Sequence record: OQ174507.1
DNA length: 64,000 nucleotides
DNA from: Escherichia phage REP8
Direction: 5' to 3' (one strand)
The position numbers were made by a program, and so were the translations under genes. The notes beneath the pieces were generated by a model. That model had not been told where the DNA came from and made no database searches. It worked only from the letters and a program-made list of their open reading frames with translations. Within the stretch, counting starts at the first letter, position 1, and each line of letters starts with the position of its first letter. This document shows, one piece after another, positions 36,756 to 38,147 of this stretch.

Positions 36756-36876
36756 TTGGCAGATTTTTTATAAGGCTACTGCCATCCTTCCATACATTAC
36801 CTAACCAGACCAGACCTTACCTTACCAAACACCACCCCACCTCATTAAAAGACCCTCTTTAAAGACCTTTTAAAAA
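36756..36876 (+). repeat. intergenic repeated element, copy 1
   Basis: 46 bp core TTGGCAGATTTTTTATAAGGCTACTGCCATCCTTCCATACATTACC, then C/A-rich tract and AAAGACCCTCTTTAAAGACCTTTTAAAAA. Confidence 0.6.
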
Positions 36877-36896
36877 GGAGCCTCCGAAGAGGCTAC
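36866..36896 (-). terminator. rho-independent terminator (minus strand)
   Basis: AGCCTC-TTCG-GAGGCT followed by CCTTTTT on the minus strand, just after the stop of 36906..37346. Confidence 0.5.
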
Positions 36897-36905
36897 CTAG
36901 TCAAC

Positions 36906-37346
36906 TTAGAAAGGTTTTCTACGTTGCTTGTTAATATTAGCTTTCATAGCAGCTAAATGGTTTTGCTGTTCAATTAGTCGTGAACGTTCTTGGTGGCTAA
37001 GTGCCATAGTGTTCACATTCTCAATCGCTTGAGTGGCTTGCTTTAAAGCACGACCAATCTTACCAGACATTTTGCGTTTTGCAATAGTTGCTTGATGCTT
37101 AGGTTCAACCACACGATAACCAACACCCATTGAAGCAACCAGATAAATCTTCTCTTCTTTAAGAAGCTTCTCAATAAACTTCTCAAGCCGGTTTAGACGT
37201 GTAAGTGCATAAGCCTTCATTTCATCTTCGTACTTAACAATGTCACCTTGATAAGTTGGCTTCACAATACCTAAGAAGGTATCCATCTCAGAATGTGATA
37301 CAGTGTCACCGTAACTAAACTTTGCTGCTAATGCTTTTGTATTCAT
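36906..37346 (-). CDS. hypothetical protein
   Basis: 146 aa. Confidence 0.4.
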   Translation of the reverse strand: MNTKALAAKFSYGDTVSHSEMDTFLGIVKPTYQGDIVKYEDEMKAYALTRLNRLEKFIEKLLKEEKIYLVASMGVGYRVVEPKHQATIAKRKMSGKIGRALKQATQAIENVNTMALSHQERSRLIEQQNHLAAMKANINKQRRKPF

Positions 37347-37348
37347 AA

Positions 37349-37951
37349 TTAAACGTTACCTTCTGAAATAACTTCTACAGAAAAACGACCAAAGCGTGGA
37401 CGCCAATCACCTACACCACAAAGGTTACCAGCATTTTCCAGAACCATCAGAAGTTCCTCTCTGGTGATTTGCTCTTCATCGAACATCAAACCGAACTCTA
37501 CAGACCAGTCACGGAAGATTGGACGGTAGCTCATAACTCGTGCTGTGCCAATCTTAACAGATTTAGCATAGATAAAGTCTGGATTCTTAGCAAGTTCTTG
37601 TGGGTTTGCTGGGCAGTTCTTGATAGTCATTGGGAAGACTACATCTGTCAGCATAATGGCTCTGTCAATTACCTTACCAAGTTTGTTGAGTTTTGCACCA
37701 GACTTGATACAAGCCTCAATCATCTCACCGTTCATAACAAAACCTAGCTGCTCATCGTAGTAACAAGAAGTTACTAGTTGACTTTCTGCTAAGAGCGCAT
37801 AGTCTTCGTCAGTCTTTTTACGTTTACTGGACAAAGACTTGTGATATTTTGTCAGAGGGTTTAATGGGTCTGACAACGTATCGTTATGGCTTAAGAAAGG
37901 ACGAGTACCAGTGATTTTGATATTTAGCAGTTTCATAGCATTTAGCTCCAC
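37349..37951 (-). CDS. hypothetical protein
   Basis: 200 aa. Confidence 0.4.
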
Positions 37952-38010
37952 ACTTTAGTTGATTGTTAAGTTGTTTGTAAAGAACCCTCAACAGAAGACT
38001 CTTTAGAAAC

Positions 38011-38147
38011 TTGGCAGATTTTTTTATAAGGCTACTGCCATCCTTCCATACATTACCAAACAGTACCGTGCCACAACACACCATACCCAACTCCACCTAA
38101 CCCTACCACACCTTATTAAAAGACCCTCCTAAAGACCTTTTAAAAAA
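38011..38147 (+). repeat. intergenic repeated element, copy 2
   Basis: same core as copy 1 (one extra T in the T-run), followed by C/A-rich tracts and AAAGACCCTCCTAAAGACCTTTTAAAAA. Confidence 0.6.

Follow-up and report, generated by a model that had tools for sequence, protein, structure and literature searches.

The 64,000-nt stretch of Escherichia phage REP8 that was analysed here (OQ174507.1; in the following the window) belongs to a Felixounavirus, with 100% identity to Escherichia phage REP9 and 92–95% identity to many Felixounavirus genomes. It raises the question of why two copies of an intergenic element, at positions 36756 and 38011, bracket a module of two minus-strand genes. We conclude with a probability of about 0.93 that positions 36757–38339 on the minus strand constitute a type II Viral Interference Programmable Repeat (VIPR) locus of the SUSP1 clade, which comprises genes for Vipr, Vap1, and three vrRNAs, with predicted guide targeting and probable recombination among its units. 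According to the preprint that describes them, VIPR systems consist of vipr, which encodes a minimal RAMP protein, vap, and vrRNAs, and provide phages with a CRISPR-like, RNA-guided gene silencing that is directed against rival phages and satellites (bioRxiv 10.64898/2026.04.26.720920). The same text defines a vrRNA as 9–16 YNNGG repeats (at least four for detection) followed by an invariable tail, which is a pseudoknot in the SUSP1 clade, and reports for SUSP1 one vrRNA upstream and three downstream of the genes, all giving RNAs of ~100 nt that co-purify with Vipr (10.64898/2026.04.26.720920). As VIPR has been defined in preprints of 2026, the locus is therefore of an already known kind. What the window and its relatives add are orphan guides and a putative anti-VIPR guide, both of which are modest additions.

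The locus is situated between the gene of an ATP-dependent DNA ligase (38347–39450) and a small operon starting at 36665, in a region from ~33 to 44 kb where every gene lies on the minus strand. Both intergenic copies are borne out by a 14-nt exact pair (family D6, 36756/38011), and the repeat search also yielded a 79-nt pair of 80% identity (D2, 36764–36842/38020–38098). The two units have a size of ~125–140 nt each and flank the minus-strand genes 37349–37936 and 36906–37346. The 46-bp core that an initial annotation had described, including its TGGCAG/CTGCCA hairpin, is the same in both copies except that the T-run of the second is longer by one T, and the common AAAGACCCTC..AAAGACCTTTTAAAAA end is likewise present in both, with a small indel between them. 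The two enclosed open reading frames (ORFs) do lie between the copies, but the REP9 annotation starts the larger one at the ATG at 37936 and not at the GTG at 37951. Three features had been overlooked, namely a third, more diverged unit at 38142–38281 between the second copy and the ligase gene (66% identity; member of the 85-nt family D1 at 36793, 38064, and 38196), the strict 5-nt GGT periodicity of what had been called C/A-rich CCAC tracts, and the functional strand, which is minus as for the genes. The repeat is far above chance, since 0 matches to the core pattern are expected in shuffled sequences, and within the 64-kb window an excess of C over G of at least 20 per 60 nt (plus strand) occurs at the three tracts only. 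A strict array finder missed the degenerate tracts of the window, whereas its relaxed version returned exactly the three units. In other GenBank records these elements are labelled “repeat_region,” “DR_4,” or predicted promoters/terminators. The direct repeats listed in the genome paper on Felix O1 are others than these elements, a search of the literature on Felixounavirus repeats, transcriptomes, and pentanucleotide repeats yielded nothing relevant, and Rfam found no family over 36600–38400 at the gathering threshold nor at E-values up to 10.

The GGT pattern resembled a protein-binding array and therefore IMG/VR was scanned blindly for arrays of eight exact GGTNN repeats, (GGTNN)8, many matches of which are simple microsatellites. 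Complex arrays with 5–13 different NN were present in 60 contig pieces, where the lengths of the sub-arrays peaked at 12–14 pentamers. All-against-all clustering of the ORFs led to the identification of one dominant family of ~190 aa, which occurs in 40 of the 60 pieces and includes the 37349–37951 ORF of the window. Family and arrays are encoded on the same strand in 39/40 pieces, the array is no more than 100 nt away from the gene in 35/39, and it is usually located just 3' of the stop codon. A second ORF family from five pieces, which are unrelated contigs in which it is next to vipr, includes the 36906–37346 ORF of the window. Since the arrays co-occur with the Vipr family, the bracketed genes and the repeats therefore belong to one conserved module.

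The first of the two genes, vipr (37349–37936, minus strand), encodes a minimal RAMP protein of 195 aa (200 aa if the GTG start at 37951 is used), which is ~97% identical over all 195 aa to the “SUSP1 Vipr protein” in the PDB (36pp_D, E 1.5e-127); a profile of the Vipr family matched 36pp among PDB sequences with an E-value of 2.8e-81. The AlphaFold model (pLDDT 93.4) shows a RAMP fold with an RRM core, G-loop, and thumb, whereby the best folds in a PDB copy older than 36pp were Csm3/Cas7, type VII Cas7, and Cas6. More than 500 homologues from phages and prophages have in common a TG..PL..H motif near the N-terminus and a glycine-rich loop towards the C-terminus, the latter being the G-loop that is also present in the window protein. 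No match to vipr was obtained in Pfam or PADLOC, and PHROGs lists it as “unknown function” only. Cryo-EM structures of the filament and of the triplex show one Vipr protomer per repeat that presents NN for pairing, whereas GGY is buried by H17, R138, D177, W178, and R179 among others (10.64898/2026.04.26.720927). Eight of the nine GGY-contact positions named there are matched in the window protein (H17, E71, M72, R138, C173, D177, W178, R179); position 175 is V in the window and in the deposited SUSP1 sequence alike, where the paper writes T175. The second gene, vap1 (vipr-accessory protein; 36906–37346, minus strand, 146 aa), follows vipr directly and shares 99.3% identity with the gene at the equivalent position in SUSP1 (locus L017). 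It had no match in Pfam, PADLOC, or the PDB and is again of “unknown function” in PHROGs.

Two vrRNA units, U3 and U2, are located upstream of vipr–vap1 and one, U1, is located downstream. Read in gene sense, each unit has three parts, which are a long G·U-rich hairpin, 10–13 phased YNNGG pentamers, and a 3' H-type pseudoknot; all coordinates that follow refer to the minus strand. U3 starts with a hairpin of ~19 bp with several G·U pairs at 38243–38281 (CATCACTTAAG...TTAAGTGATG, -19.6 kcal/mol in RNAfold), which is followed by a guide tract of 12 pentamers at 38183–38242 (NN = AC AA AA TA AG GT AG CC GA AA TT GT) and a tail at 38142–38182, in which stem S1 (GTAG/CTAC), stem S2 (AGTCTCA/TGAGACT), and an A-rich loop 3 form the pseudoknot ahead of the U-run TACTTTTTT. 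In U2 the hairpin is at 38116–38143 (TTAAAAGG...TCTTTTAA), the guide tract of 13 pentamers at 38046–38110 (NN = GT AG TA GG TG AT GT GT AC AC TT AA AT), and the pseudoknot at 38012–38045 (S1 AAGG/CCTT, S2 TGGCAG/CTGCCA, loop 3 ATAAAAAAAT), the latter being the 46-bp core mentioned above. U1 consists of a hairpin found with RNAfold (36845–36873), a tract of 10 pentamers (36790–36839), two of which are degenerate (TGGTG, TAATG), and a pseudoknot of the U2 type (36757–36789). The hairpin box thus precedes every tract, and a lone fourth copy (TAAAGAG...TTCTTTA, 37978–38005, within the feature 37952–38005) is found upstream of vipr, where it overlaps the weak promoter-like site TTTACA-18-TAAAGT.

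The same build was found in relatives, for which 29 loci were assembled, 24 of them by one exact-pattern scan of IMG/VR. These loci contain 73 distinct tracts of 45–95 nt, and the length of 70 of them is an exact multiple of 5. Read backwards starting at the tail, the pentamer positions are G (96%), G (81%), N, N, and T (88%) or C (11%), the last position thus being a pyrimidine in 99%. As GGY stays in phase and the intervening NN varies across tracts, selection keeps the GGY phase and lets the two bases vary freely. Among 69 distinct variants, the hairpins comprise 16–19 bp with -11 to -24 kcal/mol (RNAfold) and three to five G·U pairs, which are A·C mismatches on the opposite strand. Their outer arms are of three covarying types (TTAAAAG/CTTTTAA, CATCACTTAA/TTAAGTGATG, and TAAAGA/TCTTTA). 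Conservation extends over the apical sequence GTCTTY..GAGGGT, and 24 nt are inserted at the apex in some relatives. A first parse of the tail as a simple 3' hairpin with a conserved loop was replaced by the H-type pseudoknot in every case; all 98 tails (16 distinct variants) can be parsed in this way, whereby the arm alphabets were fixed in the regular expression in advance, which makes this a consistency test and not a blind prediction. For S1, the versions AAGG/CCTT, GTGG/CCAC, and GTAG/CTAC were seen, with matching arms in every case, S2 has six versions, all of them complementary (TGGCAG/CTGCCA, TGGTAG/CTACCA, AGTCTCA/TGAGACT, AATCGG/TCGATT, AATCGG/CCGATT, AATCGA/TCGATT), which include G–C, G·U, and A–U at one position, and loop 3 is A-rich. 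Longer arrangements were seen at other VIPR-like loci in IMG/VR (L034, L035, L042, L047, L086, L137, and others), which carry super-arrays of up to 18 consecutive sub-arrays, separated by the short motifs GGCTAATG, GGCAGGT, and GGAATGGTTTAATGAATTTAATT; one stretch comprises 82 pentamers, and in L034 an AT-rich promoter-like segment lies ahead of each sub-array.

If the tracts are guides, their NN strings should be readable against foreign DNA. The rule given in the preprint is that the NN dinucleotides match double-stranded DNA in order, on either strand, with one base skipped between them, that the skipped base is usually at the codon wobble position, and that targets of the SUSP1 clade are mostly located in a satellite whose tape-measure and baseplate genes are also those of the phage (10.64898/2026.04.26.720920). 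Such a satellite was located by searching the post-tape-measure gene of the window against complete Escherichia coli genomes. A “phage baseplate protein” gene with 91–96% identity is present on the chromosome in 474 of 5426 genomes, and five islands of ~11.5 kb each were taken (L148 5837–17359; L149–L152), which are inserted in yecE/DUF72 or beside tonB and carry recombinases, a DNA methylase, a tape-measure gene, and the baseplate gene. With a skip of one base, the U3 guide matches 22 of 24 NN positions at AACGAACAAATACAGCGTTAGCCCTGAAAAATATCT (L149 8938–8973, within an annotated coding sequence at 8717–9040), the skipped base being codon position 3; other skips reach at most 0.71 and shuffled NN strings at most 20 positions. 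The U2 guide matches 25 of 26 positions of its target GGTGAGGTATGGGTGGATGGTAGTAGCCACGTTAAAAAT with a skip of one, compared to 0.65–0.69 with skips of 0, 2, or 3 and at most 20 positions in 100 shuffles of the NN order. As a calibration, 38 of 70 distinct guides of the clade reach at least 80% on the five satellites and 20 reach at least 90%, whereas on chromosomal flanks of the same length none of the 70 reaches 80%.

The U2 target is of a different kind. Its satellite site (L148 7188–7226, minus strand) is outside any ORF and falls where a vrRNA-like array with its tail (7209–7276, minus strand), encoded by the satellite itself, ends; vipr was not found in any of the five islands. In rival Felixounaviruses, 24–25 of the 26 U2 positions match the TGGTAG-type tail that belongs to the vrRNA gene just upstream of vipr (L002 at 3320–3358, L009, L018, L019, L021 at 6598–6636, L023, L027, and L029; coordinates in gene-sense orientation of the loci), whereas only 19 of 26 positions match the TGGCAG-type tails of REP9 itself. 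Shared ancestry does not account for the match, because the guide has a period of 5 nt and the target one of 3 nt. Judged by sequence, U2 is probably directed against rival VIPR loci and appears to be an anti-VIPR guide that is built to spare its own locus, whereby REP9 would escape its own U2 because the tail at the vipr-proximal position is of the other (TGGCAG) type. VIPR-on-VIPR targeting is reported for another clade (10.64898/2026.04.26.720920), and targeting of this vrRNA tail was not found described in the accessible portions of the VIPR preprints.

Taken together, a Vipr protein, YNNGG vrRNA genes with pseudoknot tails, an adjacent vap1, and NN matches to targets were all found, as in the SUSP1 clade, and repeats and enclosed genes are one functional system. 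By analogy with SUSP1, whose Vipr is 97% identical, each vrRNA would be an RNA of ~100 nt with YNNGG repeats and a pseudoknotted tail, along which Vipr protomers would polymerise, one per pentamer, each burying GGY and exposing NN. The NN string would then pair with double-stranded DNA, with every third target base skipped, and block transcription, and Vap1 would be accessory to Vipr, a role that is taken from SUSP1. U3 would silence a gene of the E. coli chromosomal satellite with Felixounavirus-like tape-measure and baseplate genes, and U2 would have two targets, the vrRNA gene that the satellite itself encodes and, in rival Felixounaviruses, the tail of the vrRNA gene immediately ahead of vipr. 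Recombination among units would change their number and could remove or insert vipr–vap. For SUSP1, repression assays and an enhancement through vap1 are reported, and reprogramming of NN alters the repressed target (10.64898/2026.04.26.720920); for REP9, expression of the vrRNAs, a Vipr ribonucleoprotein, and repression are predicted by analogy.

Several observations weigh against this assignment. A literature search for RNA data on REP9 found none, and the satellite sample consists of five variants only. For U1, two of whose ten repeats are degenerate, the best matches on the five satellites and the window were 16/20 (0.80), which equals the null maximum, and one of them is inside the window itself (40077–40106). 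Its single exact match in IMG/VR is taken as chance, because it is in an unrelated portal-like gene with the skipped base at codon position 1. U1 may be inactive or its target may lie outside the sample. Furthermore, the 5' hairpin is not mentioned in those parts of the VIPR preprints that were accessible. As the 60-nt tract and the tail already fill the ~100 nt of a mature vrRNA as in SUSP1, the hairpins would be outside of it and may be processing sites or promoter-associated elements. Finally, the promoters assigned to the locus are consensus matches only; the promoter scan gave 4 sites where 3.8 are expected by chance.

The best of the other explanations is that the copies are duplicated promoter/untranslated regions, as the initial annotation had suggested, which would drive their minus-strand neighbours and give no RNA of their own. 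Near-consensus sigma-70 sites and a terminator do adjoin the units, the hairpin box ends in TTTAAT, which resembles a -10 hexamer, and other annotators have placed promoters and terminators here, among them one at the weak vipr-proximal site in phage ASO1B. However, the good promoters and the terminator are outside the repeated core. A sigma-70-like promoter (TTGACA-16-TATACT, 11/12 hexamer positions) is located at 38312–38339 (minus strand) just after the ligase stop codon in all relatives and probably drives the upstream vrRNAs and vipr–vap. The intrinsic terminator AGCCTCTTCGGAGGCT plus T-run follows vap at 36879–36894 (minus strand), and a further sigma-70-like promoter, that of the downstream operon (ORF 36282–36665), lies at 36704–36738 (minus strand) within the inverted repeat AAGCTATAA/TTATAGCTT. 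The number of promoter-like sites is that expected by chance, phased pentamers with multiple-of-5 lengths and a covarying pseudoknot are no promoter features, and the 24-nt insertion in the box of some relatives would ruin promoter spacing, yet the hairpin stays. In addition, the SUSP1 equivalents yield discrete ~100-nt RNAs bound by Vipr (10.64898/2026.04.26.720920). Overall, we consider a mere promoter duplication very improbable.

Two observations on the promoter regions may be added. Inverted repeats span the -10/start region of the first promoter (GGTGAGTA..TACTCACC, 38300–38345, minus strand) and surround the -35 region of the promoter of the downstream operon (AAGCTATAA..TTATAGCTT, 36704–36760, minus strand); a role as operators is conceivable, for instance as binding sites of the helix–turn–helix regulator encoded at 35776–36105. 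In the relatives L004 (757–910), L008, L011, L017, L021–L023, and L027, there is an insertion of 150–180 nt between the ligase stop codon and the VIPR promoter, of which at least two alternatives exist, encoding a small hydrophobic peptide or a basic peptide, and the window has neither.

The initial annotation had also proposed that the repeats mark a cassette that is gained or lost by recombination. The gain and loss part holds as a side-effect, but the repeats are guide-RNA genes and not mere markers. The ligase-to-operon junction or parts of it are covered by 27 related loci, 8 of which are without vipr and vap; these apparently belong to Felix O1, EC6, UAB_Phi87, Si3, SP116, and three metagenomic phages. 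In these eight loci, where a single spacer remains, the enclosed genes are indeed absent, and the spacer is chimeric, its head corresponding to the upstream and its tail to the downstream spacer of the window. The single spacer of Felix O1 has 283 nt, with promoter and type-2 hairpin from the upstream side and the TGGCAG tail and second promoter from the downstream side; the remaining cassette-less loci have one or two units in the same arrangement. Among relatives, a spacer holds 1–3 units. L001, L019, and L027 share one last-unit guide downstream of vap, which recurs in the single spacer of L011. Presence and absence of the cassette are scattered over the ligase lineages, and vipr/vap show 94–98% nucleotide identity where the ligase shows only 87–89%. 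As the units share conserved ends of ~40 nt, recombination between these would alter the number of units and could remove or insert vipr–vap; the spacer data fit such recombination, in the direction of gain or loss alike.

It might be argued from the cassette polymorphism with its chimeric spacers, the variable unit number, and the higher identity of vipr/vap compared to the ligase that the units are nothing but passive direct repeats, that is, recombination substrates like the PeSL cassettes of T4-type phages, with no guide function. The repeats do bracket genes that are present or absent in close relatives, with junctions inside the repeats. A PeSL-type element is nevertheless rejected, as the core is a repeat tract plus pseudoknot and not a composite promoter–terminator. 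Moreover, the hypervariable NN makes most of the unit poor for homologous recombination, the NN strings match foreign DNA at 92–100% under the gapped code (controls 0/70), and a protein partner is kept beside such arrays in 40 unrelated contigs. Passive repeats are therefore even less probable than the promoter duplication.

That VIPR units persist where the cassette is lacking is seen on a larger scale in the phage collection, where vipr was found by tblastn in 129 records, in 117 of them with at least 90% identity, compared to 230 records with a match to the U2 unit. Thus, about half of the Felixounavirus-type genomes appear to keep vrRNA units without vipr/vap. In Felix O1 (L005) an orphan unit occupies the ligase-to-operon interval at 2349–2630. 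The complete genome of UAB_Phi87 (L154 and L155, NC_027360) has no vipr or vap (best tblastn E-values 1.2 and 0.89) and contains two units at 57897–58456, one of which matches the satellite L150 (9744–9776) at 22/22 positions; guides from two further loci without the cassette reach 0.89 and 0.91 on satellites. This close match to satellite DNA suggests that orphan guides, which are not covered in the accessible text of the VIPR preprints, are kept for Vipr in trans or for a Vipr-independent role. They may be active with Vipr supplied in trans, or they may be recent remnants. The combined proposal that orphan guides are kept, be it for the Vipr of a co-infecting phage or for a role without Vipr, and that U2 is an anti-VIPR guide is tentative, and we would put its chances somewhat below even.

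A third explanation is that the G-rich, C-poor tracts act in a generic way, as an antisense rut site, a G-quadruplex or R-loop origin, or a platform for a TRAP-like ring. The composition is extreme, the plus strand being C-rich and G-poor over 60–70 nt, a (GG-N3)n pattern could give two-tetrad quadruplexes, and the 5-nt period is like that of the (GAGNN)11 site of TRAP. In the Bacillus trp leader this site consists of ~11 (G/U)AG triplets with a spacing of 2–3 nt, each bound by one subunit of the protein oligomer. On the other hand, a pyrimidine at the third position in 99% is needless for quadruplexes, the G·U pairs of hairpins and tails are possible on the sense strand only, GC skew tracks the direction of transcription without an origin-like switch at the locus, and a partner protein with solved structures accounts for every conserved position. 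A generic function is as improbable as that of passive repeats. Other candidates were dropped since they leave the GGY phase and the adjacent conserved RAMP gene unexplained: boxA/nut-like antitermination, an RfaH ops-like site, T7-type primase sites or an R-loop origin, Chi-like or RecA-preferred GT tracts, antisense rut, G-quadruplex, a Shine–Dalgarno-like ribosome standby platform, a ToxI-like antitoxin, and a preQ1-like riboswitch pseudoknot. A CRISPR array, in which identical direct repeats of ~25–40 nt are separated by unique spacers, was rejected because the window has no matching repeat family and no Rfam match at E-values up to 10, and a type III toxin–antitoxin system (ToxIN-like, with tandem ~36-nt repeats and an endoribonuclease) because neither protein matches a PADLOC model, the units are of another size and architecture, and Vipr has a RAMP fold.

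Apart from the VIPR locus, the window contains two group I introns above the Rfam gathering threshold (41280–41563, minus strand, and 57911–58285, plus strand), an ORF at 40139–40675 that possibly encodes an HNH/AP2-type homing endonuclease, judged by its sequence and the annotation of relatives, and a cluster of 23 tRNA genes (4330–9177, plus strand). The REP9 record holds two further tRNA-like features; one leucine tRNA was detected by both tools, whereas a Met and a Tyr tRNA were found by ARAGORN only, compared to the Rfam list.

VIPR is a recently reported minimal form of RNA-guided DNA recognition with a protein of ~20 kDa and a guide of ~100 nt, and it is proposed as an ancestor of the CRISPR RAMPs. 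The window offers a model case from nature. Since targets could be assigned to two of three guides from sequence alone, such loci are open to automatic annotation and target prediction, and public records still call these features “hypothetical protein” and “repeat_region.” Felixounaviruses are widely used in phage therapy and biocontrol, and the locus predicts which satellite-bearing E. coli and co-infecting relatives could be suppressed. Orphan and anti-VIPR guides would, if functional, be an extra layer in the conflict among phages and satellites.

Compared to known systems, the TRAP site shares ~11 triplets at 5-nt spacing that are each read by one subunit, whereas in VIPR the triplet is GGY, the fold is unrelated, the protein forms a helical filament instead of a ring, and the spacer bases are informative. 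The PeSLs of T4-type phages, which are composite promoter–terminator motifs by title and abstract of the papers on them (PMC2839356, PMC4122927), are likewise conserved intergenic repeats around accessory genes that close relatives gain or lose; unlike them, the repeats of the window are guide-RNA genes that belong functionally with the genes they bracket. With Class 1 CRISPR–Cas (Cas7/Csm3), Vipr shares the RAMP fold with RRM core, G-loop, and thumb, and VIPR shares, according to the preprints, a filament on a guide RNA, periodic base flipping, and a structured handle that caps a variable guide. In contrast, VIPR has no CRISPR array, no cas1/cas2, and no nuclease, is phage-encoded, and represses, and its period is 5 nt, with three bases buried, two presented, and a gapped NNx reading, instead of 6 nt with one base flipped. 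The closest system is the type II VIPR of SUSP1 (PDB 36pp), with 97% identity of Vipr and 99% of vap1, the same gene order, with the DNA ligase on one side and the next operon on the other, the same vrRNA build of YNNGG repeats and pseudoknot tail, and the same class of natural target, an E. coli satellite with tape-measure and baseplate genes. The host genus is Felixounavirus for the window and Suspvirus for SUSP1. The window has two upstream and one downstream vrRNA, whereas SUSP1 is reported with one upstream and three downstream (10.64898/2026.04.26.720920), an arrangement that is also seen in L017, which is apparently the SUSP1 genome. All three NN strings of the window differ from those of SUSP1, and its vipr-adjacent vrRNA has a TGGCAG-type tail instead of the TGGTAG type that is usual at that position and that its own guide matches.

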